From NCBI RefSeq assembly GCF_037042905.1, contig NC_087250.1, positions 15,750,001 to 15,814,000 on the forward strand: 64,000 bases of DNA, read 5' to 3'. This DNA is from Lytechinus pictus. Its lineage: Eukaryota. The notes below the pieces were generated by a model. It saw nothing but the letters and a program-made list of their open reading frames with translations. It was not told where the DNA came from and made no database searches. Within the stretch, counting starts at the first letter, position 1; each line of letters begins with the position of its first letter. Of this stretch, positions 778 through 60,421 are shown piece after piece. Made by a program: the position numbers and the translations under genes.

Positions 778-882
778 CTGATGGCCCATTCAATCTGGCA
801 AAGGACACCAACAATCTTTCGGAACTTGCATCAAGGCTTTCATTCAGAATAGCAGAATCTTCCATACCCAAGGGTTCAATAT
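778..882 (-). CDS. F5/8 type C domain 3, exon a: IEPLGMEDSAILNESLDASS...ARLNGPS
   Basis: cttacag|AT...G|gtaaga; phase 1-1; gene continues left of the window. Confidence 0.9.
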
Positions 883-3800
883 CTGTAAGAGAAAACACAC
901 AAAAACCAGGAAAATATACAATGCAAATATGTATAGGTCTTAAAAATCTGTTCATCATATTACCATTTTAAAGATAACCCTTCCTGCACAAGGAGGGGGT
1001 GGGGGAGGGGGGCTCCAGACAAATTTCACAATCGCCAAATCACTGCACTATGGTATAACTGAGATACCCCAGGTTCCTAATTCTGTAGTATTACTTGAGA
1101 GTGAATCTTGTAGTATTACCTGATGGTGAATGTAGTATATTACTTACCTAACCCAGTTTCATAATTCTGTAGCATTACATGATAGCGTATGTATTATTAC
1201 CTTTCTAAATGTGATAACTCGGATCCATTATTCTGCAGTATTACAATATAGTGGATGTAGTATTACTTACCTACCTGCGATATCCCAGGTTCATAATTCT
1301 GTAGTATTACCTGATAGTGGATGTAGTATTACTTTAATACCTCCCTGTAATATCCCAGGTTCATAATTCTGTAGTATTACTCTTTTTTTTCTCTCTCTTT
1401 CACCCATAACAGGGGCATTTATTTTCAACAAAAATTCATTTCATATTCACATCGTTTTTCAACAAAACTCATAGATACATTTACAAAGCAACAGGCAAAT
1501 TATACATTTCTTTCTTTCTCCTTTTCCTCAGAATCTTATTGATATCTAATCTTAATTTCAATTCTCTGACAAAAGTAAACCATAATTTATTTTCTCTTTC
1601 TTCTTTTCTACGTAAGTTTCTAAAAATTAACATCTTATAATTACTCCAAAGTGCTATTGTTATAATATCATCAATCTTCTTTTCTTTGTAATTTTTCAAC
1701 AAAATATCGACATGAAAACAAAGGTCTACGTCATACACATTTTTAATCATTATGAATAAATTATAAAAGAAATGCCTATTCAAACTACAATACAAAAAAG
1801 CATGTATTAAATCTTCTTTGATATTACAAACTTCACATTTATCATCATTGTCCAATTGCCATAAAAACAACATCCTCTTCGTAGGAATTAAGTTATACAA
1901 CAATTTCAAATTGAATTGTTTTAATTTGTTTTCCCCATATTTTTCAAATTTCTCTGAAAGACATTCTTCCAATTTATAGGATTATCGGCAAAGTCAGCCC
2001 AATATGTAGGAGCGTCATTTGTTTTGTCATGTATTAATAAAATGTGGTAAAATAGCTTGCTGGAACAGAACTTAAGTTGTTTTTCTTTTCCCTTCAGTGG
2101 TATTTTTGGAATGTCCAACGTAATACCATCTGTTAAATCATTCAACCATATTTTCGGTATCACCCTTTGTAGTTTAGAATAATCAAACAGGGCTCTTGCT
2201 TTTGTTTTCTCGGATTCAAAATATTCTTTCAGTTTCGTAAGAGATACAAATTTTCCTTCCATACAAATGTCTTTCAGAAAAATTATTTTGCTAGCGTACC
2301 AATCTCTATAGAAAAATGGTTGATTATGATATACAATATATTTACTATACCATAGAATCTGTGTGTTCGATAACAAATCATCTTTTCTGTTGATTCTTTC
2401 AAGTGTGACCATGATTTTATAATCTCAACATAAAATTTTGGCAATTTGTTAACAAACCATTTTTCAATCATGTGATTATCCATAGTACAGTTAAGAACTA
2501 GTCTGACACCCCCTACTGATTCCAAATTCAATAAAGCAAAATCTTTCCAATAACCACTTGTATCGTCAACTATTCTCGCCAACCATTTCAATCTGAAACT
2601 CTGTATTAATTTCTGAATGTCGATCATTCTAATACCACCATCCTCATATTCCTTTACAATTGTCATTCTCTTAACTTTGTCAACTTTTGCGTTCCATAAA
2701 AAATGGCAAATTATCTTCTCCAGTTTCTTTACTATCTGGTGAGGAATTGGACAAAACATAATTAAATGAATTATTTGACTTACAAGTAGAGTCTTGATAA
2801 TAAGGACTCTTCCTTAGTATTACTTGATAGTGGATGCAGTATTACCTAACTGTGATATTCCGGATTCAAAATTCTGTAGTATTACTTGATAGTGGATGTA
2901 GTATTACTTACCTAACTGTGATATTCCAGATTCATAATTCTGTAGTATTACTTGATAGTGGATGTAGTATTACTCACCAACCTGTGATATCCCAGGTTCA
3001 TAATGTAGTAGTATTACTTGATAGTGGATGTAGTACTACTGTACTTACCTAACTGTGATATGCCAGGTCCATAATTCGGTAGGAACTCCAGGATTTCCAT
3101 GCGTAAAGCGCCCGGGTAGCTTGCATCAAAGAGGAAGTTAAGTTTCACGTGACGCGCTGTAACAGGCTTGTCAAAGTAGTTCACCACAATTGTATCCTCA
3201 TCGTAGTTTGATATGAAGGTCTAAGGGATAAGAATAATGACAATTATAATGATCATATATAATAATAATAATAAAGATAATGATAACAATAATAATACTC
3301 CTACTTCTATTAATACTAATAACGATAATTCTGATAATAATCATTACATTTATATATCACATCTATTTTTACGGCCATTGGATCTATCACTGTTCCACAC
3401 ATCACATGCTCCACCTCTACTCCCAGATGAGCACTGGCAAATCCAGGGGGGGGGAGCAGCCGGCTCATGCCCCCCCCACCCTTTGAGAGGTATAATTAAA
3501 ATTTATCATGTAAAAATCCTGTTAAAACACAACTGTGCCCCCCCCCCTTTGAAAGTAAGGACCTTTTTTTTTGCTTGTCAAATTTTTGTGTGGACAAAAT
3601 GAAATTTTTGGTTGAAAACCTTTCTTTATCTTTTTTTTTGCATCAGGAAAATGTGCCCCCCCCCCTTTTTTGGAAAATCCTGGATCCGCCCCTGCAGAGG
3701 AGCATCCCAGCCAGGCAACTGTTCTACCCTGTTTTACCTGGTACCCATTTAACACCTGGGTGGAGAGTGAAAAAGCCTTGCCAAAGGACCTTAGTGCCAG

Positions 3801-6800: not shown

Positions 6801-9800
6801 CTTAGGGTTAAATCTAGGCTAGTGTCGCTTAGTCGATAGCAGCACTATTGTTGCTTGAGCAAACGTCATGGATTTATTCAATTATCAAAATGTGTTATTT
6901 GCCAATAAGTTTTGTATATTATTTGTAACTGAAGTATCTATTATGATGTTTATTCTTCTTTGCATATTATGTGTGTATATGTTTGTTGTTATTCGAAAAT
7001 GAAAGAAATTGAATTGAATTGAATTGAACCGAATTGCATACCTCTGAATTTCTCCTATCTTTAGCAGAAACCCAGTTAGAATCATTGATGCCATATGACA
7101 CAGAAAATGACCGAAAGACATTGTTATGTTGAGTCCTTCCCTGGGTCATCACCCCACCAACCAGCTTGGTCTCCCGAAGATCAACCTGTATCCACGGGGA
7201 GTGGTCTCGCCAATCTGGGACCCATCCTCCGATGCCGACTCCATCCTCTACAAATGACAGAAAGAAAAAGATGGAGAAATTCGGTGGATTCACAATATGG
7301 TGTGCCATATATCAGTTGCAGCGAGAAGCCAAATTTCTTACTTCTACAAGCTTTGGGGTCAGCATCGCGCTCAGGCGCAGGCAGCCTGCATAGTAGTGTA
7401 CTGTGATGCTTCAAAAATAAAAAATAAACGATTTGGGATAAGCGGAGGAAGAATCCGCCGAAAATGTTCTAAATTTTGCACAGAAATATGTGGCAAATTT
7501 CTCTCCCACAGCCAGGACCTAGTAAACAGTTGGTCTAGCCGCATCGGCCAGTGACACAAGAGATTTCGACCTTTTCCCATAATGAATTGCAAATTTCGGC
7601 CTGTCTGCTGCTACCAGTAGGTGGCGCACCGTATTGTGAAACCACTGAATTACAAAGATATGCATTATTTTAGTGGTCAATTCACTTCACCAAATGATTC
7701 ACACAAAAAAAAGAGTTCACAAAAGGATGTGTTGAGTAGTCCAATACAAATTATTTATTTGTGTGTATTTTTTTTGGGGGGGGGGGGGCTTCTAGAGTTA
7801 TGGAGAGCTGTGGCTCAGTGGATTAGATACCAGATTTGCAACAGAGGGTCGTGGGTTCAAATCCCAGCTATGTGTGATTTCAGTTGATCAACAATGTGTG
7901 ACACTCAACCCAGATGAGGTACATGGAAATGGGTACCGGGTACATGTAGGTGACAGGATCAGTAGACTAGCTTGGCTAGGATAATACAAGAGCGCCTTGA
8001 GCACTAAATAAGGTGGATATGCGTGCTATAAAAATGCCTTATTTATCATTAAAGGAATTGGTAGTAAAAGAGATTTTCATAGAAAAGACTTTTTTGTAAG
8101 CCCCCCCCTCCCCGTTGTGTCAAAATGGTGCGTTTATTTGACTCCTCTCCCTCAAACCACCTTTTCGAGAAAGTGCAACAATCCCCAATCCACCCATGCT
8201 CCGCAAATGCAGACAACCATCACAAGCCATTGTACGATAACCTTGCACTTTCGTTAATCGTACAATATGTCCCGGTTCTGACCGGCCCAAGGGTTACGAT
8301 CCTACGAAAGTATTCTATGAAAACATCAATGTTCATTTTGTATGGAAAAAAACTCAGCAGTTCCTATGAAGAAAAAAAATTCCTGAAAATTCCCCATATT
8401 CCCGCCAACTTGACGTAGAGATTTACATGTTTATAGACAAGTTTATAGACGAGTGCAAAAAATTAAATAATTGTCTCGCACTGGTGAATGAGAGAGTCCC
8501 AAATTATCACACAAATAATGATTATCCTACATCTGTCAAAGCTGGCTTGGTGTATGTATATTGAAGATTGACAAAAGGCCTCGCTATAGTAGGCCACGTA
8601 TGCTTGAACCATTTACTGACTCTCATTGACAATGAAGATGGTCAGTGGAAACAGAGCAAGGTATGCCTATTTCATCAGTGGAACATGATACAGAGAGAAG
8701 GAAGTTTCGGTCAAGACCAGCTTTTCTTTCTAGTTGGGAATATTCATAGGCTTAGGATATGACTAGCTGGAAATTGTGAAAATATTGTTTTAAAAGAGGA
8801 ACTTTGTTTATCACCTCTAAAATTCTAAACTGTAAAGTATTGTGTGTATTTTGTGTATTTCTTAGCAGTCCCAGCCCAGTCAGAAGTACAAAGTCAACTA
8901 CCATTTGCACATCACCAAGAGTTACAATCTGATGAGGAACAGGATATCTGAACTAAAAACTTGCAAGGTATGCTTATTTTCATAAAAAAGGCCCCCTATT
9001 TCCCTTTTTTTTTGGGGGGGGGCTATAGCTACTTTTTCTGAATCATGTTATCCCATATTATAAAGCTCCATTGTGATTTGATATTTATTTGGATTCAGAT
9101 TCACCAGTATTTACATTCTCATCAATGCATACTTATTGTCCATGTCTCTTATCTATATTAGTCATACAGAAAATCACTTTAAAACTCTGTTACTCTGTAG
9201 ACAGAAATAAAAAGGACAAAATATTGAGAGTAATATTATGATATAATATTTGAATGAGTTTGCATACTGAATAAAAAAAAGTTATATGAATAATGATCTA
9301 TAAATAGTGATCTATGATTTTTATCTGGCTATATAGATTACTACATGTGCATTATCTAAATAATATTGCATGGAAGAGTAGCTAGGGCCTAATAAAAAGT
9401 TTAAAACTTCTTAATAAACTGGACTAGATGAGTAAGAAATAATTTGTATCAGCAGCTCATTTTGTTCTTTTCTCTTTTTTGTTTACCATGCAGGTTTCGC
9501 AGGCTGTTTGAGTATCACCAGAGCAGATTAAGAACATGGAGGCCAAGCTCATAACAAGTAGTTACTTCATCGCAATTACACATTTTAAAATTGAATGAAT
9601 TTGAATAAATGTGTCAATACATATTGAATGTTGCTTGAACTACACATCTGTAGAAAAAAAATAACATTAGAGTATAAATATTTAAGTCCATAGGTTTCAC
9701 ATAAGATTAAAATATTTTCCCAAAGGGCAAACCTACCCACCCTTTATTAATGTTCTAATCATCTGTTACAGTAGTACTTATAGTAGTGAAAGAACTTTTA

Positions 9801-45800: not shown

Positions 45801-48800
45801 TGAAAATATGTGACCTGCAACCCAAAAGCAAACTAAGCTTGAAAGAGCGCATCCATAGCTTTAAAAAGATTAACTCGTCAAAATTAATCAACAGTATTAA
45901 CGCATACAGGTATTTGATTGACTTCAGACGAAATCCAAGGAGAGCTCCAAAGAATAAGGAAAGAACAAGGTTCCAAGTTTGGGGTTAACTCAAGCATAAG
46001 ATGTGCACACTGGGTAATCTCGTTGAAACTTCCTATCATTCCGAAAAAGAGTGGCGTCAAAGAAACTCTTGTATCTGGGTTTTTACTTACTGACAACTTC
46101 AAAATCTGAAAGTAAGAAATACTGTTCCAGATAAGCTAATTTTTTAATAGCTTTTTTTAAAGACCAAATTGATTCAATTTACAGAGAACCAACCCTGGCG
46201 ACTCATTGTTGGTTTGAGTTGGCGGGTCACATGTGTTAAAATACTTCTCAAAAGTTTGTTTCAAACTCTTTTGAGGAAAGTTTTGAGAAAGAGTGGGGTG
46301 AATTTCATTATAACAAACCATTTAATATAGTCATACCACAAATCCAAAACAAACAAAATTTCTACCTATTGCAAAAGTTGGACAGGCGAGGGTATAAATT
46401 TTTGCTTAAACGGAAAGCCGTGGTGTAGTGGTTCTGACTCTCTCCTTCTAAATAGAGGGTCGTGTGTTCGAAATTGCTCAAAAACTTGAAATCATGTACA
46501 AATCCAATGCAAATAGTGTTTTTAGCCAAAATTCAGAAATTTATCACTATTTTTCCTATCACTGATTAAAATTAATTAATTTCATCTTGATTATGGTCAA
46601 AATAAAGTCTCTCAAAATTTCAAATGAAAAACAATAAAAACAAAAAGAAAAAAAAACAAAGAAATACGTAAGAAATTTAGAAAACAATAAAATACATAAG
46701 AAAATAAATGTGATGTTGAAATAATTTTTTAGATACATTTGACCAGATTCCTATAAAGAGTCTGTGAACCAAAAATAAGCATTTAGGGGCATTATTCAGT
46801 TAATTAGAGCAAACTTCTGATTTTTACGCATGAAATAGTCTTCTTAGGCGTCAAAATAGCCCATTTTATTTAGGGTTAAATGACTTAACATAAATTCACT
46901 GATCGGTGCATTTATACCGCAGTAATTTTTATTAGAAGTAGCAAAACAAATACAGTTTTAGGATAAATGACTTTCTGCATTATCAGCAGTGAGCTAGAAT
47001 TGTCTATTTGAAGACCATGCATTTATAACACACCAATATAGAGAGACAGCGCATAGGGTGATTTCACGTCCGGTGTTGGTCTTGGTGTTGGTGTTGGAAT
47101 TTGCATTGCTTCCCCTAGCTCCAAAATCTAATATGAGTTTGTAAAACTGATCCAGTGGCCCGATGCAGAAAGAGTTGCAATCAATCGCAACTCTAAATAT
47201 CATGCGCAACTTGATTTTCAACCAATCAACAGCGCGCATTTGGGACTTGCGATTGATTTTTTGGCTTGCGTTTAAACGTAACTCTTTCTGCAACGGGCCC
47301 CTGACCACGTTATTGACATCTCGCAAACTATAGTGAGTGACTTTTCAGGACCATCTTCATTTTATGTTTGGTGTTACACTCGTGTAATAATTGACCTAAC
47401 ATCAACACCAACAGATCAACACTGAACTCTGTTGGTCAGTTCACTTCCCCTTTAAAAACTATCACATTCCTTGAGCTTTACATTTTGAAAAAAAGGTTTT
47501 ATATCAAGATGAAATAGTATAATAATCTATAATAAAATTACATTTCTATAGCGCACAATACACAAAGTCTCCATGCGCTTCACATATACATGAATTAAAT
47601 ATCTCAACTAATGATATACAATATGGTCATTGAAAAGAATAGATTACAATAGGAATAAATAACTCGATAATTATACAGCATGGCATAGACCATGCAATTA
47701 TGTTAAAGCATATCTAATGATACAATAACTTTAGGGGGAAGAAAATCCTTTTGTTTGGAGGATAAAGGTTCTAGAACAACTTACACATCCCAGAGAGAGG
47801 GTAATGGTGTAAAAGCATCTGGTCCAATATAGGTGATTAAATTATGCCGGAGGTCACTGTACATGGGCGGAAAGAAATAAGAGAAAGGGAGGGAGAAACG
47901 AGAGAAGAATCTCAAGCTAATCCTTTTGTTTCCAAATCAGGTGATGATAATCTTCTATTCAAATTTACACCAAGAACTATAGTGCCTCAATATATGCTCT
48001 GTTTACAAAAATTATTTCCTTAGGTTTTTCTCTATTTTTGAAATTCATATGACCAGAATAATAAATATCATAAAAAGGAGGTTTTTTATTTTGTGCATCA
48101 ACAAATAAAAAGCACTGTATAAAAATATGATTGATATGAATCACTATAGCTTGAACCACTAAGTCGATAAGTGCTTACAGGAAGGGTAGGTGAGGGCACG
48201 TTACCAAATGAAAATTAAGACCACATAGTAATTGGATGAAATGATGAGTAGAGCAGCTGGTTTATGGATCAACTGATATACATGTATGATGTTAGACCAA
48301 TTGTCTATCAGACCAACTGGCTGTTGACCAAATGGTTATTAACTGATCTGGAGAATAGTCTGTTTGAAATTGCTTTGTGAAGGTTAAATATAAATCAAGA
48401 ACTTGATAAAACTAATGAGAATGGCGTATGAAAAATATAAAGTCCTAACACACCCTTTCAGCCAAACCAAGGGGGTGCAGGTGAGCTTTGGACGAGGGGT
48501 GGGGTTCCAGCAGTCAACGCAATACGAACTAACGCCCATAATACATCTTTTCGGCAAAACCAGGAGAGGTTACCATTATGGCAACACCCCACCAGGCCCT
48601 TCCAGTACAAGCCACTGATAAGATACCGCCCTCAAGAGCACTTCATTATTTTGGTCATCATTATTATAAGCCTGTTCACGGTTGTAAACTGCGCATGAGC
48701 AGAAAAAGGTCATTTGAGATAAGCCATGAAGGTGGCTTTCAAATTCACTGACAGGCATTTGTGATTTGATGATTATTCATGTATTCCTTTCAAAATATTC

Positions 48801-50550
48801 ATTTTATCACATCCAAGCTGAAGAGTAATAAATAGAACCTTCATAATCACTGGTATTTGACAGTAGCCTAAACAATAGTCAAATGTGCCAAAAGCAGACA
48901 ATAAAACAGATTTCCAAACTTTATCCCTGATGTACTATTCTAGTCACCTGGTAAAGCTTACGCAACATCTACATTTGAAAATTATAGTGCTTATCCTAAT
49001 GAAAAATCACAAAGGTCATTTGAGAAAAGTTGATCATGAGCTAACCGTGAACTGGCTTATTAACATTGTTATCATTGTAGGAAGAATTATTGTTGGGATG
49101 AAAACCGAAAAGAACAAGGAGTTCATACAGGTAGGGCCGATGAATTCAAGCGGATCCACACCTACATTAGGGTGAATTTCCAACAATGGGAGTAAACAAA
49201 TTAATTCCCCCAAACATTCAACGTAAATTAATCACTATTGATATGGGTTTTTTTCAGTTTTATTCTTTTCCATAACCTGGGGGGAAAGCTAATTCATCCA
49301 CCCATCTGTAACTACTGAAACATTAACAAAACACCTTCAAATATTTTTGTCCCATTACCCCTTATTTCCGATAACATTTCTTGCAAAGCACCTTGAGCAC
49401 TCTTGGGAGTGGTCTTGGCATGTTTCAGTCAAAATCTTTATTATCATTATCATCATTATTGTTACTATTACATAATAACAGGACGATTACAGGGAATACA
49501 GAAATGACAAATAACTTACATCTGCCGTAACTTCTGGAGACCAGAGAATAGGCCTGCTGGAATGTAGGCGATTCTGTTATTATACATGTGTCTGAAAAGA
49601 AGTGATATAGCATTAATGAGGCGGTTCAGTGGCAAACTATAAATTACACCGGCTGTAGCACCAGCTGCTAGGTGCATTCAAAGAATTAATCCTGCCAGGT
49701 AGCCATTCACCTCACCTGGGTTGAGTGCAGCACAATGTGGGTGAATTTCTTGCTGAAGGAAAATGTGCCATGACTAGGATTCAAACCCACGTCCCTCTGA
49801 TTGAGAGACAAGAGTCGTAACCACTAGACCACGAAAAGGATAGTGACAGGGAGGGCCCACAAGGCCAATGATCCAAGAGGCCCAGTACATTCGCCTTCAT
49901 CAAAAGATTTCCCACAAAGCTTGATCCACAATGTGCACTCTTTGACATGGCCCTGGGAAGCGAGGTTGCTGGGGGTGCTTCAGCATTCCCAAGACTTTCC
50001 AGTTCTGGTATTATACCCCAAAGACAGCACCCTCTGGAAATCTGGTCGGTAGGATACAAAATTATTTTGTCTCCTATGCTAAATAGCAGAAATGTAAACA
50101 AACATAATCACTTCATTATATGGAAAACCCTTTGTTTTGTATTTTTAGATTATTTTGGCAAAAAAAAGCTGCTGAAAACTGCTTATCTAATAAAAGAGAG
50201 CCAATGGAGTAAATTAGAAAGTCGAAAGGGGCCTAAGCTTTCGATCCTAGCAGAATCTTCGTCGGAGGCAAAATATTATTTTAAGCAGAAATAATTTTGA
50301 AGAGACAACCTCCGCATGTGGAAAGACCCCAGTGATTGGGGTAAAGGAATAATATGTGAGCTTTTTATGGCTACATGCCTGAAAACATCCTAAGTACTGG
50401 AAAAAAAGCTAAAAATTTACCAAAAAATGCTGTTTTACTTAAGGAACTTTACAGTTTTCATATCTAGTATAGATCAGATGTTTTTTTTTCGAGACAGTAA
50501 ACCTTTTGTTATGGGACAAGGTTTCTCTCTCTCTCTCACAAACCATCTTC

Positions 50551-50585
<35 letters not shown>

Positions 50586-53500
50586 CCTCTCTGCAGTTTT
50601 TCTTACTTACATAGTTTCCAGGCTCACAAGCGTTTTGAAAATTCTGGGGCTTCGAAAGGATGTGATCGCATTCTCGGAAAGGTCAAGAAACGTTAGCGAC
50701 TGTGAGTTGATCAACGGTTGCTCTTGCAGTTTATTACCTTTCAAGGAGCTTTTGGAATAAAATGATGAGAAATGTCAGAAGAAAGCATATATAGCTTCAC
50801 TACACAAGAGCTCAGAATTATACGTATATGGGTAAGTCATTCGGGTTGGGTAAAATAAAATTACAAGATGTCCATGCCATGTAGGTATCAACTATATTTT
50901 ACAATGAATATCAATTCAGAGGCCTGTCTTACAAAGACTTGCGATTAATAAGATCAATCGTACATAACTCTATGGAAATCCATCATAGTGTCATAATTTT
51001 TTCTACAATAAAATTGCAAAATGTCCTTAGTAAACAAAGGAGAACACACTAAATTGTCAAGAAATTTATGAATTTATGAATATACATCACATCTAGAAAA
51101 TGTTTGAACAAACATGCATTTTATAATGTTGACATTGCTGGCTTTCCATAGTTCCGATTGATTGGATCAATCGTGACTCTTTGTAAGATGGGGCCCAGAT
51201 GTGGCTCAGGCTTGTTGCGTCAATGTGAAAAAGGTGTCCTACCATGGTAATTCATGTTTGAACTTGAAATCTTTTCTGGATTTGTTGTAGTTCGGATCAA
51301 CCTATGTATAGCAATGTTACATGGATATCACATTCATATATCATTGACAATGGATTGTCAGGTCTGAAGTTGCAACCCATCATGATGTTTAATTAGCAGA
51401 ACTATGAGGGACACCATTTTTTGCTGAAGAAATCATTGGAAGGTATTTACTTAGTTTAAATGAGACTGGCTTTTTTTGGTATATCACAATTATTGACCCA
51501 ACTTTTATTTTATTTTATTTCATTTCTACATATACAATACAGTAAGTAGGTGGCTTCTTTCATCCAAGGGATATTCATGACTAGACACGTTTTGCATATT
51601 TAATGAGCTAGATGCAGACCACAACATCTCTTTTAATTCGGGCATTGCTGCTCTAAATATACATCAAATTTCATGATTTTGGTATCATTGTAAAGAAGAA
51701 TTATTCTTTCAGGTCATGTGTTTGAATTAATTTACAGATTTTGTAACATTGCAGGTAAAACTTTTTATTTAAAATATGCTTCAAAATAATTAATTTCACC
51801 TGACAAAAGTTGTTATTTTTATACTTTATTTTTGTTTGAGCCCAAATGATTTTTAAATCATGATAAAGCTGGATATCTATGCTTTAAAATGGTATATTTC
51901 AAAACAAGAATTTGTTTAATCGGAAAGATCACACTTTACATTGCCCAAGTACATTAAGCAGCTTGAAAACAAGAATAGTGCACTCTGATTGGTCAAACAG
52001 ACCACACACTCAAAAGTTCCAGTGCTGGATTCACTGCAACATCACACTCACAATGTGGTAATCTCATCAAAATACCCGCGCTTGTTGTTTTAAAGCCTTA
52101 CCCAGCCAATCAGAACTCTAGATTTCATGCTTCTCCAAAATTTTTGAAATCTCGTCTTGTACCTTGGTGGGAAAAGCATGATCTTGACCCGATTAAAAGG
52201 TGCCGCATATTAAGTGTGACATCGTGAGAAAGTACAGAAATTCAGCTTCGTGGTGATATAGATATCTTTGAGCCTTCAAAATAAAAAGTTTTGCGCAATT
52301 TGCAAAAGAAAATATAGGAGGAAAATTCAGTTTGTAAGCACATTTTCAGGCCTGAAATTCACTCATTAATCAAACTATTTTAAACAAAGTAAATGACCAA
52401 AATGAAACAGAAACATTTACTCTGTGCGAAAAGATATATAAATTGATTTGAGGCTAAAGTAGGTGAATTCTTAGAGAAAGAAAATCTCGTGATTCACAAG
52501 ATTTTTCAAGGAGGATTCGGCCATGAGAGGATTTTGATGAATCTGGCCTATTTGCTCATTAGCATAAGGACCTGCAGTCTGACTGAATAATAGCAAATAT
52601 CAACTTTGAAAATAATCAATACAATATTCAGAAAGCAATACCAGGAGACAAAATAATACTATAATGAATTAGTTTAGAAATGAAATGCATAATTCTTGGA
52701 ATATTTTCATGTACAGTCGATTGTACAATTTGCCTGTACCAGTATGCAATTTTTCACAGCGATCATTGGCCAAGATCTGAAAGGGGGGTCAATTCCCCCC
52801 AGCTAAAACCTGGTCTGAAATAGCATACAGCCCAGATATAATAGGGTTAAAATACAAATAGAATGAATTTACTCACAAAGAATAAACATCACGCAGTCCC
52901 CGAAAAGCTTCCGTTGCGAGGTGTTCCAATAAATTATTTTTCCACACCCTGCGAAAGAGTAAGAATTCTTGGTCAATTCTTAATATGACACACTTTAAAG
53001 AGAAGAAAAAAATGATATCTGCATTTGTTAAAAATTGATATTGTTATCCTGTTGGAGACTGAGCTAGTGAATATAAGCACTCTGGAGTTTACAGGAAAAC
53101 ATTTGTTATAGCAAATCATTCACCAAGAGAATAAACGTGGCAATTTTTCAAACTTGGATGAAAAATATCAAACTGATACAAAAAGCATTTTATTTTTTTC
53201 AGTGGTATCGGAAGGTTTGGATCATGGCCATATGCAGTGAGGGGGCAGGGACAGTTCAATTTTGAAAACTTAAATTTTTTTATTGATAATTTTCATAAAA
53301 TTCACCAAAGTTGTACACAAAATTGTTCAATTTTACTTTCGATTATGCAAAGTGCCCCCATGCCAAGCTTCGTTGCTCACTCAATCTCTCACTTTTAAAA
53401 TTCTTCAAAAAAATTTACGCGTCTTGCCCCAGGGAAAATATTCTGCATACAGCCATGGCTTGGAGTCAATTTCATTGGTAAGACTGATAAGTAGGGTAAT

Positions 53501-56500: not shown

Positions 56501-59500
56501 ATCCAGTTTTCTTATATCAATGATTATTATCACTTACAAATTCATGACCTTCGAGTTACCACTAATGATCCTTCCTTCTACTTCCACTATTTCACAATTA
56601 CTGAAATCCCTGTATGGGGAGAAGGAAAAATATATGAAAATATTATATTCCCCATATTCCCCATACTAAAAAACTTGCTATAATAATGATAATTCAATAC
56701 TTCTATAGTGCCTAACAAAATTTCTCTAAGCGCTTTACATCACAAAACCTAACTACTTAACTTAATAAACTAAACTCACTTATCAACTTAACTACCTTAC
56801 ATAACTAAACATCCAACGTAACTACCTTACATATCTAAAATACTAACTTAACTACTGGCATATTAACTGTAAAAAATCATACTAATTACGGAAGAGATAT
56901 GTCTTAAGTGCTACTTTAAAGGAACGTAGAGAAGAATGGGATCTTAAGCTAAGAGGAAGTGAGTTCCAGAGTGTAGGAGCCACAACTGAAAAGGCTCCGA
57001 CGCCATGGGTGTGGGAGGTTGCATTGGGAACAACTAAAAGATTCTTGTTGGATGACCGAAGTGATCGAGAGGGTTGGTAGGTGTTGAGCATGCTCGCGAT
57101 GTATGAGGGGGACTTTCCTTAGATGCTATAGGATTGGTTAAATGTCAGTCCCGTGATAAAGGGTAGTTTGGCCATCATTTTTGTTTCGCTGATCACTTCA
57201 GCCTATAGGTTCAAAATGCGTTGTGTTACTTTGAGTTTGCGCGAAATAAGTGGCTATTGCCACTCAATTTTTAGTTCCATTTTCTCCATCACATGCAGTA
57301 ATGATCTAGTTGCATGCGCAGTCTAAATACGCGCTAGCAGTAAATCATTACGCAAAGTAAAAGGGCTTTGTCCTTTATTTGTTTTGTTGTGAAATTCTTT
57401 TGTGAGGTCACAATTACCCAACTCGAGCAAGATCCCGATGCTTGTGCACAATTTACATACATGCTAGCAGGGAAAAAAAATCAGAGTGATTTTTTTTAAG
57501 GAAACCTTCCATCTCTTAAAATAAAAATGCCATCTTATTGAGGAGTATGAATACTTGGTTTCTTTTTTATATAGTTCTTCCACATGTGAAATATAAAGCA
57601 TAATTATATTCACCTCTTGATTTCAGGAGGCAAGCTATCTCTCTCGCGGTGAGCTGGATGTACTCGCTATCTTTCCTCAGCTTTGCTTCTGAAAGATAGC
57701 TACATCCAGCATACCTGGAAAGTGATAGTTTGCCCATCAACTTCACCAACGGTGATTATTTGCTCACTAGTACTGAATTACACCAACATCTCTGATATTT
57801 GGGGGGTGCAGCATTGCCTATGAAAGCGCCGCTAATGCTAAACAAAACATTTTCATCTCTATCCAGCCAAAGTTACCATGGAAAGTTTTGAAGTGGGCTA
57901 ACATTCCCATCGCTAATGATTACAAGGTTAAAACACAGTTTCATATTTTACCCAGTATCAAAGGGATGGTCCGGGCTGAAAGTATTTATAGCTTAATTTA
58001 TAGAGTAGAATTCACTGAGCAAAATGCCAAAATTTTCATCAAAATTGGATAACAAAGTTATTGAATTTTAAAGTTTAGCAATATTTGGGGTAAACAGTCG
58101 TCATGAATATTCATTAGGTGGGCTGATGATGTCACATCTCCACTTGTTCTTTTGTATGTTATTATATGAAATGAGGTTTATTCAAATTTTTTCCTCCAAG
58201 AAGTAGAAAAATTGGAATGACAACTGATTTAGTGCATTAGATATTTATTGCTACAACTTATTTCATGATAAGGGAGACATATTATTCACACAAGTATGAA
58301 ATAATGAAAAAAAAAAAGATTTTATGTAATAACATAAGAAACGGAAAGTGGAGATGTGACATCATCAGCCCACCTAATAAATATTCATGACGCGTGTTTT
58401 CACAAAGTATTGCTAAACTTTAAACTTCCAATAACTTTATTATCTGTTATCCGATTTTGATGAAATTCTCGGCATTTTACTCAGTGAATTCTACTCTATG
58501 TATTAAGATATAAATATTTTCAGCCCGGACCATCCCTTTAAAAACTTTAAAAAAATTTAAAAACCCTCACATTTCACTGAAAATACTGATTTTTACATAA
58601 ACTTTTTTCTTCCTACATGATACTTACATGGCATATTCTATTTGACTATCAAAAGAAATATCATGGAATGCTTGGTCTTCAAGTAACTCGAGCCGCCCAT
58701 TTTCCCAGGACCTGAAAAAAAAAAATGTTTGTTTGAAACAATTGAAAACTACCTTTAAGAGAAACTAACTTTTCACACTGTTTTTCCATTTAATCTAAAC
58801 ACACTTTCTATAGATTAAAATTACGTTCAATCTATAAAATGAAAAGTAGTTTGAACTTGATTTGGTAAAAGATAAAGTCTTAAATCAGCTCGTGTTCGAT
58901 CGGGACAGATCACCAATTACGTGATTGCCCGCTCTCTCTCCATCTTTCTCTCTTTCTCTCTCTCTCTCTCTCTTTTGCTGCACTCTCTCAAAGTTACTAA
59001 CTTTTCTGAGCTTTCTAATAGGTAATTAATTTTCATTAAAATATTAAAAGATTAACCTACTGTGGAAAGGAAGGCTTGTTGATTTCGACCTGATGAAGTC
59101 ATTTATCTTTGTAATAATAATAATAATAATTACATTTATGTAGTGCTTCATATGTTGGTTTCTAAGCGCTTTACAATGTAATTATTATGACCCTTTGTAC
59201 ACAAAGTATAAAAATTAGCAATTTTCGGCATGACATTGGCTCGTAAAATATCATGTGACATCACGATGCTATACCCTTATGTCACAAATTTGGTCTCAAA
59301 AGTTGCCCGAGACTTTTTAAAAAAAAGTCATGAAATTTTGCGGCGCAATCTTTTTGCATTTTGGAAATATCGCGCGAAGCATTGAGGGGGGGGGGCATCC
59401 TGGCCCCCCAGTCCTTTTAGAGTTTAACTAAATTTATTGCGTTTACAAGGAATTCAGAAGGGTGAGGTGAAAACATGTCACTGTGACCTAGACCTTAGAC

Positions 59501-59826
59501 CTTTTGATCTCAAAATCAATAGGCTTCCTGGGATCCATGCTAGTATCATACACACCAGATTTTATGACCCTACATATTACAGTCTTAACCCAATCTAGGC
59601 CAGGGTATTGGGAAATATGGCGGCGGGGGGAGCGCCTTGCAGAGGCCCTCTTGAGATCTTGACTGTTGACCGTGCAAAAAAGATCAACAACGAAAAGTTA
59701 GTTTTGTGTGGAACAGGGCTTCGGCACCGAGTACAATGGCGATTATTCCCTTACCATCTATTCAGTCCATTAATGTTGTTAAATGCCTTCGAAGAAATAT
59801 GAGTTCCCTGAACGCTTTCAAAGTCT
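778..59826 (-). CDS. Partial multi-exon gene (24 exons in window, ~1,091 codons): LRR x~7 - LRRCT - FN3 - PA14/fibro-slime - kringle - F5/8 type C x2 + start of third; 5' and 3' ends outside window
   Basis: 24 exons with AG/GT boundaries totalling 3275 nt; every junction is phase-compatible with no in-frame stop; domain motifs appear in a coherent order. Additional unseen exons, e.g. in the 32.6-43 kb intron, cannot be excluded. Confidence 0.85.
1055..1381. repeat. ~66-bp minisatellite, left part (about 5 decayed units)
   Basis: repeated cccaggttcataattctgtagtattac...gatagtggatgtagtattacttacct. Confidence 0.85.
1382..2814 (-). mobile_element. 5'-truncated, frameshifted Tx1/L1-group non-LTR retrotransposon (ORF2 C-terminus)
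   Basis: GRVLIIKTL...FLW...GG-x-x-x-ID...KWL; CCHC knuckle CEVC...EDLIHAFLYC; three overlapping ORF pieces; A-rich tail; TSD tagtattact at 1372-1381 and 2815-2824. Confidence 0.9.
2815..3077. repeat. ~66-bp minisatellite, right part (4 units), overlapping the 3' end of exon 3049-3220
   Basis: acttgatagtgg recurs at about 2822, 2884, 2950, 3016. Confidence 0.9.
3049..3220 (-). CDS. F5/8 type C domain 2, exon c: TFISNYDEDTIVVNYFDKPVTARHVKL...ALRMEILE...
   Basis: cccttag|ACC...G|gtaagt; phase 0-1. Confidence 0.92.
3432..3694. mobile_element. Short non-autonomous DNA element (CAGGGGCGGATCCAGG-type ends)
   Basis: cactggcaaatccagggg ... cctggatccgcccctg imperfect TIRs; related fragments near 29500 and 30160. 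Confidence 0.6.
3700..3870 (-). mobile_element. tRNA-derived SINE fragment
   Basis: minus-strand head with A/B-box-like motifs and core cactctccacccaggtgttaaatgggtacc shared with the SINE at 26630. Confidence 0.6.
4190..4618. mobile_element. MITE with CCCGGGG..GCACTC termini
   Basis: imperfect TIRs; inverted homolog at about 54910-55398. Confidence 0.65.
5027..5173. mobile_element. Small TTAA-flanked piggyBac-like MITE
   Basis: ttaa-ctctttgtgcgc ... gcgtggaaaggt-ttaa. Confidence 0.5.
5425..5688 (-). mobile_element. tRNA-derived SINE
   Basis: minus strand tgtggcccagtgg (A box) ... ggttcgaatccc (B box), core caacccaggtgaggtaaatgggtaccgg, AT-rich tail; several copies in window. Confidence 0.85.
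6378..6811. mobile_element. TTAA-CCCT..AGGG-TTAA piggyBac-like MITE family
   Basis: ttaaccctaa ... ttagggttaa; related partial copies at about 13520-13840, 30560-30840, 41040-41360, 46470-46880, 59240-59426. Confidence 0.65.
7042..7247 (-). CDS. F5/8 type C domain 2, exon b
   Basis: GGW...PWIQVDL...GVMTQGR...SFSVSYG...W; tttgtag/gtatgc sites; phase 1-0. Confidence 0.95.
7801..8050 (+). mobile_element. tRNA-derived SINE
   Basis: tggctcagtgg ... ggttcaaatccc head; same family as 5425-5688. Confidence 0.8.
11631..12478. mobile_element. piggyBac-like non-autonomous element
   Basis: TTAA at both ends; perfect 16-bp TIR ctctttgcccgccacg / cgtggcgggcaaagag. Confidence 0.85.
12943..13059 (-). CDS. 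F5/8 type C domain 2, exon a: SYAPLGMEDGRIQDDQLTQSSCWNEYHCAFRARLNIQD
   Basis: cttttcag|CT...G|gtaatt; PLGME-x-G-x-I ... ARLN; frame not reported in the ORF track. Confidence 0.92.
13945..14060. repeat. ~43-bp tandem repeat (about 2.7 copies)
   Basis: attctctccttgttctttgaaaccctcaattaatttcttctca repeated. Confidence 0.85.
14676..14850. repeat. GA-rich low-complexity tract directly after an exon donor
   Basis: almost purine-only run. Confidence 0.9.
14856..15045 (-). CDS. F5/8 type C domain 1, exon c
   Basis: IFTGN...ARYVRV...CLRLELIG; phase 0-1. Confidence 0.92.
16085..16287 (-). CDS. F5/8 type C domain 1, exon b
   Basis: WCA...EWIQVDLG...GVMTQGR...SFRVIYSSD...W; phase 1-0. Confidence 0.95.
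16570..17390 (-). mobile_element. Highly decayed LINE 3' fragment (RTE-X-like)
   Basis: remnant motifs FDKLLLP... and QKFRFS...IG resembling LINE ORF2 C-termini; many disruptions. Confidence 0.35.
18188..18304 (-). CDS. F5/8 type C (discoidin) domain 1, exon a
   Basis: MGAEDGRL...SASS...ARLN; phase 1-1. Confidence 0.9.
18393..20025. mobile_element. MITE (TIR aatag/aataag-ccagttcgtag) split by a nested HINE-like element
   Basis: the two halves match the uninterrupted inverted copy at 38788-39238. Confidence 0.85.
18683..19865. mobile_element. Helentron-associated (HINE/DINE-like) non-autonomous element with internal ~160-bp tandem repeats
   Basis: subterminal IR gtctcgcctgca (18706-18717) / tgcaggcgagac (19851-19862), terminal hairpin, (GCC)n microsatellite, about 5 tandem units, inserted in an A-run with no clear TSD. 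Confidence 0.8.
20536..20808 (-). CDS. Kringle domain exon
   Basis: ECYTDPQGLDYRGFVSVSENGHACKNW...GLGDHNYCRTP...PVC...EYCNV...C; phase 1-1; tttctag/gtacgt sites. Confidence 0.95.
20841..21152. mobile_element. PIF/Harbinger-like MITE
   Basis: ~70-bp TIR ggcccgtattctgaagtcggg...; 3-bp TSD cat; sister copy 55623-55941 with TSD act. Confidence 0.85.
21329..21511. mobile_element. Palindromic MITE (Harbinger-like)
   Basis: gtttcataaagctgttcgtaagttaagagcgactttaagaac ... inverted at right end. Confidence 0.8.
22530..22800 (+). mobile_element. tRNA-derived SINE
   Basis: tggtctagtgg ... ggtttgaatcc head; cccaggtgaggtaaatgggtaccgg core. Confidence 0.85.
22835..23072 (-). CDS. PA14/fibro-slime C-terminal exon: VGDSYTFDMFMAERFECSSELFMEFQNIEL... 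plus linker
   Basis: ttcaaag|GTT...G|gtgaga; G-x-x-Y-x-F-D-x-F-x-AER motif; overlaps ORF 22806..23048. Confidence 0.9.
23640..23915. mobile_element. MITE, homolog at about 50920-51198
   Basis: TIR-like acaaagagttatgattgatc / gatcaatcgcaaatctttgt; shared interior. Confidence 0.7.
24248..24345 (-). CDS. PA14-domain insert exon: EVRISIYQGVIKHGRCASLSYLPNENVTILLR
   Basis: cttcatag|GG...AGG|gtaaac; phase 1-0 exactly bridges the flanking exons. Confidence 0.8.
25054..25494. mobile_element. MITE with TIR aataagcc(t/a)gttcacggtt
   Basis: near-identical copy at 48666-49061; this copy carries an extra ~45-bp insert. Confidence 0.85.
25526..25695 (-). CDS. PA14/fibro-slime core exon: FTSVLRSSFHHSGQEVITLGGGEEIWLFLDGHLIMEI...
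   Basis: ccaag|A...G|gtatgt; aligns by eye to F-x-Y-x-G-x-E-x-F-x-F-x-GDDDVWVFI-x-x-x-L. Confidence 0.9.
26749..27987. mobile_element. Kolobok-like non-autonomous element (TTAA TSD, AGGGGAATCC termini) nested in a SINE (about 26630-28030)
   Basis: ttaa-aggggaatcc ... ggattcccct-ttaa; flanks rejoin as SINE core cccaggtgttaaatgggtacc. Confidence 0.8.
28099..28188 (-). CDS. PA14/fibro-slime exon: SWNESYFPIDELGFGHEDLSDCDGAFHNFG
   Basis: cctatag|G...GG|gtaag; FPID-x-x-GFG ... HNF signature. Confidence 0.9.
28572..29010. mobile_element. MITE, TIR CAGACCTGCCAACC, 6-bp TSD tacatg
   Basis: perfect 14-bp TIR; related copy 53511-53911. Confidence 0.85.
30200..30388 (-). CDS. PA14/fibro-slime exon: ASPLPTYNSP...MFSSWFKTDPEVNVALTSHLTAWWYPDESLYR
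   Basis: tttgctag|A...AG|gtatgt; 189 nt open; F-x-x-W-F-x-x-x-P-x-V-N motif. Confidence 0.85.
30992..31887. mobile_element. Tc1/mariner-like non-autonomous element with nested SINE fragment
   Basis: TIR cagttgaggccaaaagtttacat / atgtaaacttctggcctcaactg in TA-rich context. Confidence 0.8.
31297..31540 (-). mobile_element. SINE fragment with Nin-type core
   Basis: ccctactcttatacgaatagtgcagtgggttaacgtg...cacggggcctccatttaacatcctatccgag resembles the Nin-SINE domain as I recall it; (taa)n tail. Confidence 0.6.
31922..31979 (-). CDS. PA14/fibro-slime N-terminal exon: PPDMNGQQLNFTISTYDFR
   Basis: attcag|TA...AG|gtaaat; resembles the L-x-x-T-x-x-x-DF start of fibro-slime domains; phase 1-2. Confidence 0.75.
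32576..32644 (-). CDS. Cys-containing linker exon: CSAHGNGTQNNDIEAPCIPLVT
   Basis: atcttag|AA...G|gtaaat; 69 nt phase 1-1; coding-like island in very AT-rich intron. Confidence 0.7.
32910..33185 (-). mobile_element. tRNA-derived SINE
   Basis: same head and core as 5425-5688. Confidence 0.85.
33232..33615. mobile_element. Near-fully palindromic MITE (ggcccgaattcacaaaggtggttttgaaaacc)
   Basis: long TIRs; relatives at about 13125-13370 and 60422-61368. Confidence 0.85.
33926..34335. repeat. Decayed element built of ttccgaaggttcgtta subrepeats
   Basis: same family as 60819-61317 and about 40680-40875. Confidence 0.75.
34735..35300. repeat. Decayed ~150-bp tandem repeat (HINE-like core)
   Basis: repeated tattacccaaggatc...gatgcagaaataaagaaatgag...tgacctttga. 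Confidence 0.65.
36354..36620 (+). mobile_element. SINE with tRNA(CAT)-like head
   Basis: tggtccagtggttagagc (A box), ctcataa loop, gttcgaatcc (B box), mismatched acceptor stem, A-rich tail. Confidence 0.65.
36640..39610. repeat. ~170-180-bp satellite array, interrupted by a MITE
   Basis: ctgactggg at about 37452, 37628, 37801, 37973, 38143, 38315, 38496, 38677; units decay toward the left end. Confidence 0.9.
38788..39238. mobile_element. MITE inserted in the satellite
   Basis: TIR ccagttcgtagtt / aactacgaactgg; inverted homolog of 18393-20025. Confidence 0.85.
39620..40380. repeat. Dispersed repeat, diverged inverted homolog at about 51570-52350
   Basis: ccagagttctgattggctg vs cagccaatcagaactctag plus flanking similarity. 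Confidence 0.6.
41535..42554. mobile_element. HINE-like element, second copy
   Basis: same termini (agtggaacgcctc...gtctcgcctgca; gcaggcgagacaaaa) with about 4 internal units. Confidence 0.85.
43051..43247 (-). CDS. FN3 domain, second exon: EAEIQCTNEDNAPTLTANVN...DIEYICSVGSVWEGNSS...
   Basis: aacacag|A...C|gtaag; phase 2-1; FN3-like Y-x-x-x-V-x-S strand F motif. Confidence 0.75.
44657..44756 (-). CDS. FN3 domain, first exon: ARTVSAFKPEPTNVTVIWEMPSEAYPGATSPPV
   Basis: aaatgcag|CT...GT|gtaagt; T-x-V-x-V-x-W-x-x-P FN3 signature; phase 1-2. Confidence 0.8.
45134..45294. mobile_element. Palindromic MITE
   Basis: cctcagtcacatt...ccgtacggcgag / ctcgccgtacgg...aatgtgaccgagg. Confidence 0.75.
45574..45758 (-). 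CDS. LRR C-terminal cap (LRRCT) exon: GMLNNSLQCTCD...RCREP...G...FLC
   Basis: N-x-L-x-C-x-C ... C-x-x-P ... F-x-C four-cysteine cap; phase 2-1; overlaps ORF 45530..45754. Confidence 0.85.
47155..47302. mobile_element. Short Harbinger-like MITE
   Basis: ggcccgatgcagaaagagtt / aactctttctgcaacgggcc TIRs. Confidence 0.7.
47785..47856 (-). CDS. LRR exon (72 nt): DLRHNLITYIGPDAFTPLPSLWDV
   Basis: tgtacag|T...GT|gtaagt; canonical LRR. Confidence 0.9.
48666..49061. mobile_element. MITE, copy of 25054-25494
   Basis: direct near-identity over about 400 bp. Confidence 0.85.
49520..49591 (-). CDS. LRR exon (72 nt): HMYNNRIAYIPAGLFSGLQKLRQI
   Basis: cttttcag|A...AT|gtaagt; canonical typical-class LRR. 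Confidence 0.9.
49660..49833 (-). mobile_element. tRNA-derived SINE (partial)
   Basis: same core and head as the other SINE copies. Confidence 0.75.
50157..50274 (-). mobile_element. Short Penelope-like/retrozyme-type insert carrying a minimal hammerhead motif
   Basis: flanking direct repeat attatttt (50149-50156 / 50275-50282); near-identical to the inverted sequence 54430-54548. Confidence 0.6.
50231..50269 (-). ncRNA. Putative minimal type I hammerhead ribozyme (variant core CCGACGA)
   Basis: gcct-CCGACGA-a-gattc(tgcta)ggatc-GAAA-gc-UU-aggc on the minus strand. Confidence 0.5.
50611..50748 (-). CDS. Two-LRR exon (138 nt, phase 2-2): SLKGNKLQEQPLINSQSLTFLDLSENAITSFRSPRIFKTLVSLETI
   Basis: LxxLDLSxNxI consensus; ccaaaag|C...AT|gtaagt. 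Confidence 0.9.
52877..52948 (-). CDS. LRR exon (72 nt, phase 2-2): VWKNNLLEHLATEAFRGLRDVYSF
   Basis: ctttcgcag|G...TT|gtgagt; N-x-L-x-x-L-x-x-x-AFxGL typical LRR. Confidence 0.85.
53511..53911. mobile_element. MITE, TIR CAGACCTGCCAACC, 6-bp TSD tgtccc/tgtacc
   Basis: TIRs with 1 mismatch at the right end; same termini as 28572-29010. Confidence 0.75.
54372..54410 (-). ncRNA. Putative minimal hammerhead ribozyme (left arm of inverted pair)
   Basis: identical 39-nt motif to 50231-50269. Confidence 0.5.
54434..54472 (+). ncRNA. Putative minimal hammerhead ribozyme (right arm of inverted pair)
   Basis: gcctccgacgaagattctgctaggatcgaaagcttaggc. Confidence 0.5.
54681..54892. mobile_element. Harbinger-like MITE, TSD cag
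   Basis: ggggtgtttcacaaagatttaagtatgactta / taagtcatacttaaatctttgtgaaacacc. Confidence 0.8.
54910..55398. mobile_element. MITE, inverted homolog of 4190-4618
   Basis: cacacccccatcaaaatgtaatttgagtgcccccc matches the reverse complement of about 4198-4235. Confidence 0.65.
55623..55941. mobile_element. PIF/Harbinger-like MITE, TSD act
   Basis: sister of 20841-21152. Confidence 0.85.
56538..56609 (-). CDS. LRR exon (72 nt, phase 2-2): DFSNCEIVEVEGRIISGNSKVMNL
   Basis: ccccatacag|G...TT|gtaagt; 72 nt; DFSNCxI LRR-type motif. Confidence 0.75.
56690..57125 (-). mobile_element. L2/CR1-group LINE 3' fragment
   Basis: YQPSRSLRSS...AFSVVAPTLWNSLPLSLR...FKVALKTYLF, typical ORF2 C-terminus, followed by a repetitive 3' tail. 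Confidence 0.85.
57962..58538. mobile_element. Kolobok-like MITE with long TIRs
   Basis: agggatggtccgggctgaaa / tttcagcccggaccatccct-ttaa; arms pair over about 180 bp. Confidence 0.8.
59755..59826 (-). CDS. LRR exon (72 nt, phase 2-2): DFESVQGTHISSKAFNNINGLNRW
   Basis: catacag|A...TG|gtaagg; exactly 72 nt; LRR-like I-S-x-x-A-F-x-x pattern. Confidence 0.7.
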
Positions 59827-59945
59827 CTGTATGCATACAACGGGGAAGAACAAACTTGAAATATTTTGAAATTACACTGCATGACAGAGTACATGTAGCT
59901 AGTGGTACATATGTTGTTGTATTCATCATCATGGCTTCCTTTTTG

Positions 59946-60348
59946 TTAAAGGTAAATGCTAGTTTTGGTAACGATATCAAAATGAGTTCGTACAGAATCC
60001 AATGAAATGACCACCAAAGTGTCTGTTTGTATAAATAAAACGCATGTGCCAAAGGATTCTGGAAGAAATTGTGTAATTGCTGAGAAATCAGCAAATAAGC
60101 ACAGGATTCGGGTAGAGCGTCGGGCCCGACGCTCAAAGCAATAATTATACACTGTCCCACGTGCGCTTATCTGTGTTGGGGAAGTTCAGTCTGAACATTT
60201 TTCAGCGTAGATTTCAAGATTTCACAAAGTTCAGTTTATGTAACCGTACCAGATCTAGATCCTCGATGATATACTGACAATTAAGCCTGGTTTTACAGAC
60301 TTTCTCATGAAATCAGTGTTTACTGCAACTACTGGAATTTCTCTTTAA
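59946..60348. mobile_element. Kolobok-like MITE
   Basis: ttaa-aggtaaatgctagt ... actggaatttctct-ttaa. Confidence 0.6.
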
Positions 60349-60421
60349 CAAAAACATGTTCATGTACATGTATAGCTTTTTTTTTCGCACATCTTTGACC
60401 TACCTGCCCAAAAGCAAAAAT

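Follow-up and report, generated by a model that had tools for sequence, protein, structure and literature searches.

Introduction

In the main text of the family description (Shoemark et al. 2019, PMC6526912), mega-thrombospondins (mega-TSPs) are laid out as a signal peptide, about 1,000 residues of leucine-rich repeats (LRRs), a variable centre, an EGF-TSP type 3-TSP_C region and a second ConA/MAM/LamG domain. The variable centre carries cadherin, FN3 and F5/8 domains, and PA14 in Hydra. These proteins typically exceed 2,700 aa, are without a coiled coil and have members in four echinoderms. Silencing of the Hydra mega-TSP blocks head regeneration, and the same paper proposes that the LRR solenoid and the TSP tail act as binders of cell-surface and matrix proteins. 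In the one mega-TSP paper that was found, experiments were confined to cnidarians.

Here we analyzed a 64,000-nucleotide window of the Lytechinus pictus genome (contig NC_087250.1, forward-strand positions 15,750,001 to 15,814,000; all positions below are those of the window). Its minus strand carries 1,127 codons that we consider likely to form the central portion of a sea urchin mega-TSP gene, with a TSP tail presumed downstream. The first-pass annotation had recognized no named family in this architecture, a view that did not survive, as the N-terminal half is homologous to mega-TSPs and the architecture belongs in large part to an already characterized family.

Gene structure

A reading of the whole 64-kb minus strand yielded 25 exons running from 59826 to 778, every one with AG/GT flanks and matching phases. 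The spliced model comprised 3,383 nt, or 1,127 codons, without a single stop, and its reading frame was open at both window ends. This hidden gene is real. The first-pass annotation had described it with the same outer coordinates (59826 and 778), whereas its count of 24 exons and about 1,090 codons was corrected to 25 exons and 1,127 codons. When exon 16 (24345-24248) was left out, the model had 1,094 codons with a stop at codon 561; because its omission gives 1,094 codons, exon 16 is perhaps the exon that had been missed.

The support for each exon was assessed by scoring it against two urchin homologues, P0006 (UPI0003935C9E, 1,675 aa) and the Diadema antillarum protein P0004 (XP_071504671), and comparing the score with the best of 30 shuffles. 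Twenty-one of the 25 exons beat the best shuffle against at least one of these two homologues, exon 6 marginally, and exons 1, 3, 4, and 11 did not rise above the shuffles in the same comparison. A splice-site scan, with matrices trained on the 25 exons themselves, returned, at standard thresholds, no candidate exon for either intron 10 or the 59.9-64 kb region, and relaxed thresholds added two weak candidates in the intron and one in that region; no convincing further 5' exon was found in 59900-63980. Within the window, there was no signal peptide or hydrophobic segment (highest 19-residue hydropathy, 0.99) and no TSP, EGF, or complete cadherin domain.

Domain content

The order LRR-LRRCT-FN3-fibro-slime/PA14-kringle-F5/8C that had been read from this stretch was upheld, with homologous models carrying overlapping parts of it in one chain. 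Pfam searches with single exons confirmed the LRR, the kringle, and two F5/8C domains.

About 200 LRR residues lie in the window, and the repeat region is open upstream. Exon 1 (59755..59826; 72 nt, phase 2-2) is LRR-like and was placed by splice sites and frame, with no homology support; the gene starts further upstream. The LRR-like exon 2 (58628..58711; 84 nt) matches P0006 residues 522-540, and exon 3 (56538..56609; 72 nt), also LRR-like, has strong splice sites and no homology support. Exon 4 (52877..52948; 72 nt) shows an LRR pattern by eye and no Pfam match. Two LRRs are encoded by exon 5 (50611..50748; 138 nt; Pfam LRR_4, E 6.2e-8), which is identical to P0006 at 26 of 46 residues, and one each by exon 6 (49520..49591; 72 nt; Pfam LRR_8, E 0.06) and exon 7 (47785..47856; 72 nt; Pfam LRR_8, E 1.5e-4; 20/24 identical to P0006). 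The last LRR and an LRRCT-like cysteine cap follow in exon 8 (45574..45758), which is identical to P0006 at 39 and to P0004 at 19 of 62 residues. The first and second parts of an FN3-like domain are encoded by exon 9 (44657..44756; 14/33 identical to P0004) and exon 10 (43051..43247; 17/66 identical to P0004). As single exons, the LRRCT and FN3 regions gave no Pfam match, and both are putative assignments made from their motif pattern and their place in the chain.

At 43329-43406 on the minus strand, about 160 nt upstream of the real exon 10, the acceptor and first 26 codons of this exon recur in degenerate form (54% amino acid identity, E 0.007); reading through this copy leads out of frame and to a stop. 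Exon 10 is followed by intron 10, which is repeat-rich and 10,406 nt long, and across which the phases of exons 10 and 11 match. Exon 11 (32576..32644; 69 nt, phase 1-1), a linker, is the least supported exon, with low contig depth only and no homology support. An alternative acceptor for it at 32681 was rejected for a phase mismatch.

The fibro-slime/PA14-like region starts in exon 12 (31922..31979; 10/19 identical to P0006 765-781) and continues through exon 13 (30200..30412; 27/71 identical to P0004) and exon 14 (28099..28188; 12/30 identical to P0004). Its core, with the motif GGEE, is encoded by exon 15 (25526..25695). Exon 16 (24248..24345; 18/33 identical to P0006) encodes an insertion, and a two-cysteine insertion in the exon 16 region lies inside the fibro-slime domain. 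Exon 17 (22835..23072; 36/73 identical to P0004 514-586) holds the end of this domain and probably the first strands of a cadherin repeat. The fibro-slime profile TIGR02148 matched exon 15 alone with E 0.0016 and 18.9 bits against a curated cut-off of 45, and three homologues with E of about 2e-7 and 31 bits against the same cut-off. The nearest Atlas clusters for the P0006 counterpart of this region were PA14 proteins (scores 0.84-0.88), which serves as a lead only.

At the core motif, both the window and P0006 have GGEE, and the Diadema proteins P0004 and P0007 (XP_071490771) have GGDE. From the fibro-slime consensus GDDD, we take this position to be that of the DcisD motif of PA14 lectins, and by its residues the PA14 calcium motif of the window looks degenerate. 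In comparison with PA14 lectins such as Flo5, Epa1, and Cea1, the calcium-binding DD pair is replaced in the window. According to PMC6218569, DcisD (a DD pair) is the calcium and sugar motif of calcium-dependent PA14 lectins, and PA14 adhesins without the pair are taken as non-lectin.

The kringle is encoded by a single phase 1-1 exon, exon 18 (20536..20808; Pfam Kringle, E 3.6e-12). In an alignment with plasminogen kringle 4, TPSINETAPVC of the window stood opposite NPDAD-KGPWC. The acidic pair and the tryptophan lost in the window are presumably the lysine-pocket positions of plasminogen, and the lysine site of the window kringle likewise looks degenerate.

Two complete F5/8C (discoidin) domains and the start of a third follow. 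The first domain is divided into exon 19 (18188..18304; first third), placed by splice sites, frame, and homology to urchin models, exon 20 (16085..16287; middle; Pfam E 1.6e-14), and exon 21 (14856..15045; end; 34/63 identical to P0006). The second is divided in the same manner into exon 22 (12943..13059; first third; 30/39 identical to P0006), exon 23 (7042..7247; middle; Pfam E 1e-11), and exon 24 (3049..3220; end; Pfam E 8.4e-4; 32/57 identical to P0006). Exon 25 (778..882; 12/35 identical to P0006 1382-1402) encodes the first third of the third domain, and the gene runs past the left edge of the window.

Structure prediction gave a mean pLDDT of 31 for the L. pictus protein P0001 and of 36 for the P0004 stretch, the latter from a poor alignment. 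Fold searches returned no match at E<=0.001 (best Z 3.5) and thus no structural support for the PA14 and cadherin folds, and the alignment profile of the P0004 stretch gave one match against the PDB, a chance match.

Transcript contigs

Four of 24 sequence runs were compared with 19900-34050. Three of them are contig sets (X1, X5, and X8) presumed to be RNA, their records being intron-less. X8 record 15 joins exons 13-14-15-16-17, with exon 13 at record positions 745-957, exon 15 at 1046-1216, and exon 17 at 1316-1521; the gaps of 88 and 99 letters between them are about the right size for exons 14 and 16. X5 record 8 joins exons 15-16-17-18 in this order, thus including the kringle. The joint 23070-24246, with CT..AC ends (exon 17/16), was present in both X5 and X8 and revealed exon 16. 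In exons, the X5 and X8 contigs diverge from the window by about 4-7% and therefore come from a related organism; X1 record 7 deviates from it by one letter over exon 13. The raw reads of X21 cover the exons only 2-4 deep and showed no exon joint among the joints listed.

Beyond the compared region, 615 letters of X8 record 15 precede the point where exon 11 belongs, a length that would fit exons 10 to 6. X8 record 14 has 4,654 letters beyond the kringle exon, of which the later exons of the window account for 1,110; it thus extends 3,544 letters past the last exon of the window, leaving room for up to 1,181 codons.

The exon 13 acceptor at 30412 has no adjacent pyrimidine tract (AAAAAG; score -6.2) and is used in the near-identical contig X1 record 7. 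A 17-nt AG..GT micro-exon that keeps the frame between exons 15 and 17 was seen at 24865-24881 on the minus strand and is apparently used by RefSeq in P0001. As a replacement for exon 16, it was rejected, since the contigs and the homologues have the 98-nt exon.

Homologous proteins

The homologues are gene predictions, some of them visibly chimeric or incomplete. A search with exon 17 against 1.84 billion representatives gave only five matches at E<=0.001 (P0001, P0002, P0003, P0004, and P0005). With E 7e-5, P0005 is a repeat protein with DUF5801 that we set aside as a coincidental match. P0001 is the L. pictus protein XP_054757144 (475 aa), named 'plasminogen-like'; P0002 (XP_011677439) bears the name 'EGF-like repeat and discoidin I-like domain-containing protein', and P0006 is its cluster partner. 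From the accession series, we infer that P0002 and P0006 belong to Strongylocentrotus purpuratus. P0004 and P0007, both from D. antillarum, are unnamed in RefSeq.

Diadema P0004 is collinear with model residues 201-715 (34% over 516 columns, E 8e-83), and P0007 matches residues 201-677 at 34% (E about 1e-82). Both carry LRRCT-FN3-fibro-slime in one chain, followed downstream by F5/8C, an ephrin-receptor-like cysteine domain, EGF, TSP type 3, TSP_C, and LamG. The domains detected in P0004 were seven TSP_3 (E 1e-42), TSP_C (E 6e-53), Laminin_G_3, the ephrin-receptor-like cysteine domain, EGF, and one F5/8C, and the best solved-structure relatives of the two proteins were thrombospondin-2 and COMP. 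By these domains, P0004 and P0007 are assigned to the mega-TSPs. Where LRRs were expected, they carry a sequence that resembles a retroelement ORF1 coiled-coil protein (residues 1-185 of P0004 and 1-310 of P0007); both models are therefore probably chimeric and without their true 5' end. Their C-termini carry a basic cleavage-like motif and HTEL.

P0006 combines LRR-LRRCT-fibro-slime-kringle-4xF5/8C in one model and matches the window gene at 55% over 626 columns (residues 499-1113) and at 48% over residues 70-261, and from this similarity it is probably its orthologue. It has many LRRs (about 620 residues), whose matches include TLR3, LRRC15, LGR5, and ALS, and neither a leader nor a TSP domain at its end. 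In contrast to the window gene, it has no counterparts of exons 9-11, which include the FN3 region, or of exons 13-14, which form part of the fibro-slime region, and its last discoidin domain is short.

P0001 is 98.6% identical to model residues 588-799. It contains two copies of the exon 17-19 block, with 96.0% and 98.6% identity to the single copy in the window (18188-23072); the second copy reflects either copy-number variation or a haplotype falsely duplicated in another assembly. In comparison with the window gene, P0001 is a 475-residue fragment with the micro-exon where the transcripts have exon 16. No trypsin-type protease domain was found in P0001, P0002, or P0006, and with the kringle lysine-site residues replaced as well, the 'plasminogen-like' name given by RefSeq does not fit. 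A correct model in a laboratory urchin thus replaces a misleading fragment.

Word-index searches returned one match among 21 candidates for exon 17 (proteins to 2,000 residues), the fragment P0001; 0 of 90 for P0001 residues 225-335 (proteins of 833-2375 aa); and 0 of 659, with no long orthologue, for P0006 residues 770-955 (proteins of 921-2932 aa). These negatives say little, because known relatives such as P0004 were missed too.

Comparison with mega-thrombospondins

Domains of the mega-TSP central region are present in the window, with F5/8C domains matched by Pfam and FN3-like and fibro-slime regions collinear with P0004. The LRR end, cysteine cap, FN3-like domain, PA14/fibro-slime domain, and cadherin-like strands of the Diadema mega-TSPs are collinear with the window, and F5/8C domains follow in both. 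After exon 17, the two differ: the window has a kringle and at least three F5/8C domains, whereas Diadema has an EGF insert, cadherin motifs, and one F5/8C, and P0004 has no kringle. The word 'kringle' occurs 0 times in the main text of PMC6526912 and is absent from its figure key. In its insert of a kringle and several discoidin domains, the window gene genuinely departs from mega-TSPs as published, and kringles are hereby added to the domain list of the family. By title and abstract, the literature search found no echinoderm paper on this protein that combines kringle with discoidin, LRR, PA14, thrombospondin, or cadherin, with most subscription journals lying outside the search; 'fibro-slime' papers concerned microbes by title, among the matches listed.

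The S. purpuratus mega-TSP was published under two accessions, neither of which is XP_011677439 (P0002), so there may be two paralogues in urchins. This leads to an explanation that we regard as unlikely, namely that the window gene is a mega-TSP-derived paralogue in which the N-terminal half was duplicated and received a new end of a kringle and about four discoidin domains without a TSP tail, making it a nectin-like adhesive or matrix lectin. Besides the differing accession, this would be in keeping with P0006, which ends past its fourth F5/8C without TSP domains, and the 3,544 letters by which X8 record 14 exceeds the exons of the window could equal 1.7 discoidin domains plus a long 3' UTR. 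However, P0006 is visibly incomplete (exons 9-11 and 13-14 missing, last discoidin domain short), and the L. variegatus model DiscTSR (see below) unites four FA58C domains, a kringle-like sequence, and a TSP domain in one chain. In addition, the half cadherin conserved at exon 17 (49-71% identity) would need its other half downstream. We thus continue to read the gene as a mega-TSP.

That the stretch holds two genes, with LRR/FN3 at 43-60 kb and PA14-kringle-discoidin below 33 kb, appears highly improbable. For it speak the 10.4-kb repeat-rich intron between the blocks, whose junction was not seen in the transcript comparison of 19900-34050, the missing homology support for exon 11, and the splitting of RefSeq models, seen in L. 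pictus (P0001) and, provided that the loci are orthologous, also in L. variegatus. On the other hand, the phases match across the intron, the 615 letters ahead of exon 11 in X8 record 15 have the length that exons 10 to 6 would fill, and the lower block is without a hydrophobic leader. In addition, single models link the two blocks, with LRRCT, FN3, and fibro-slime together in P0004 and P0007 and LRR and fibro-slime together in P0006, and the one-gene reading of the first-pass annotation holds. We give an equally small chance to a membrane receptor or a protein for immune pattern recognition. Some proteins that bind microbes do have LRR, PA14-like, and discoidin domains, and TLR3 is among the LRR matches of P0006. 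Against this, the homology is to a secreted matrix family, whose Hydra member is needed for head regeneration, and no membrane segment lies within the window. Moreover, the PA14 DD pair is EE in the window and DE in Diadema, and PA14 adhesins without it are taken as non-lectin in PMC6218569. The pattern-recognition role suggested earlier obtained no support, and both the calcium motif of PA14 and the lysine site of the kringle look degenerate; the adhesion role suggested with it fits. A secreted matrix protein, not an immune receptor, is the best reading.

Proposed architecture and function

As a mega-TSP, the full protein would probably exceed 3,000 residues by our estimate and would be secreted into the matrix. 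The signal peptide and most LRRs would lie upstream of the window, and more discoidin and kringle units, cadherin, EGF, TSP type 3, TSP_C, and a second lectin-like domain would lie downstream. The LRR solenoid and the calcium-binding TSP tail would probably bind cell-surface and matrix proteins and link cells and matrix, with the FN3, PA14/fibro-slime (probably no longer calcium- and sugar-binding), and cadherin repeats forming the stalk. The urchin additions, a kringle without a lysine pocket and about four discoidin domains, could provide extra sites for matrix glycans, lipids, or proteins; as the PA14 domain and the kringle look disarmed, the discoidin array would be the main added binding surface. 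Since mega-TSPs are secreted, we expect neither a membrane segment nor a GPI anchor. Secretion, ligands, the TSP tail, and a role in spine matrix are predictions for the window gene.

The homology to Diadema ends at the end of exon 17 (P0004 residue 586), and the kringle and discoidin array of the window start at this point. After residue 586, P0004 has an insert with an EGF-like unit (E 0.03), FDRE at 698, DANDNCPEF at 732, and AIDAGAPP at 802. FDRE, DxNDNxPxF, and AxDxGxP are cadherin motifs; a Pfam search of P0004 returned no cadherin domain. The final 45 residues of exon 17, in a region conserved at 49-71% identity among the relatives, look like the first strands of that cadherin repeat. 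It is conceivable, at somewhat below even chances, that the first cadherin repeat of urchin mega-TSPs is an insertion hot spot and that the three spine loci described below form one such gene. The insert at this hot spot would be EGF in Diadema; in Lytechinus and its relatives, it would consist of about four discoidin domains with a kringle before them and additional kringles. Should the rest of the repeat lie downstream, an insert of many hundred residues would loop out as a side arm of a split cadherin, which would be a possible case of a cadherin tolerating very large inserts.

Secondary-spine loci of Lytechinus variegatus

In the available text of PMC11574069, the genes with the most significant increase in secondary spines of L. 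variegatus are three loci, LOC121417626 (LRRC15-like), LOC121417629 (DiscTSR), and LOC121417628 (LRR), with log2 changes of 5.4, 5.7, and 5.9, respectively. In DiscTSR, four FA58C domains lie close to the start, and the end carries a TSP and a lectin domain; its reads numbered 3,626 versus 71, and it labels mineralized septa, most strongly at the base (PMC11574069). That text treats the three loci as three genes, without a link to mega-TSPs. We propose that these near-consecutively numbered loci may be pieces of one mega-TSP gene, of which the window would hold the L. pictus counterpart. If so, this would be the first tissue link of a mega-TSP in a bilaterian, to the patterning of mineralized spine matrix; and since the three strongest secondary-spine markers are perhaps one gene, a knock-out would directly test mega-TSP function in skeletal patterning. 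By eye, the DiscTSR probe represents tandem kringles unlike the kringle of the window, and the DiscTSR forward primer had no match in the window. These locus numbers were not found outside PMC11574069 in a literature search that left most subscription journals outside.

Repeats in the window

Several repeats were observed along the window. A 220-bp tandem array (six copies, 96% matches) lies at the right end (62469-63765), and intron 10 contains a tandem array of 172-181 bp units at 37214-39614 with nine copies and more. Units of 163 bp related to the tandem arrays were present at 18868-19788 and 41741-42269. Intron 24 holds the 3' part of a non-LTR retroelement (1484-2813, minus strand) in three overlapping frames (Pfam zf-RVT, E 2.2e-5), flanked on both sides by a 66-bp tandem repeat (2815-3082 and 1152-1380), the start of which lies at the end of exon 24. 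Starting 30 nt past the exon 25 donor, a (CAT)n microsatellite occupies 305-747 with about 147 units.
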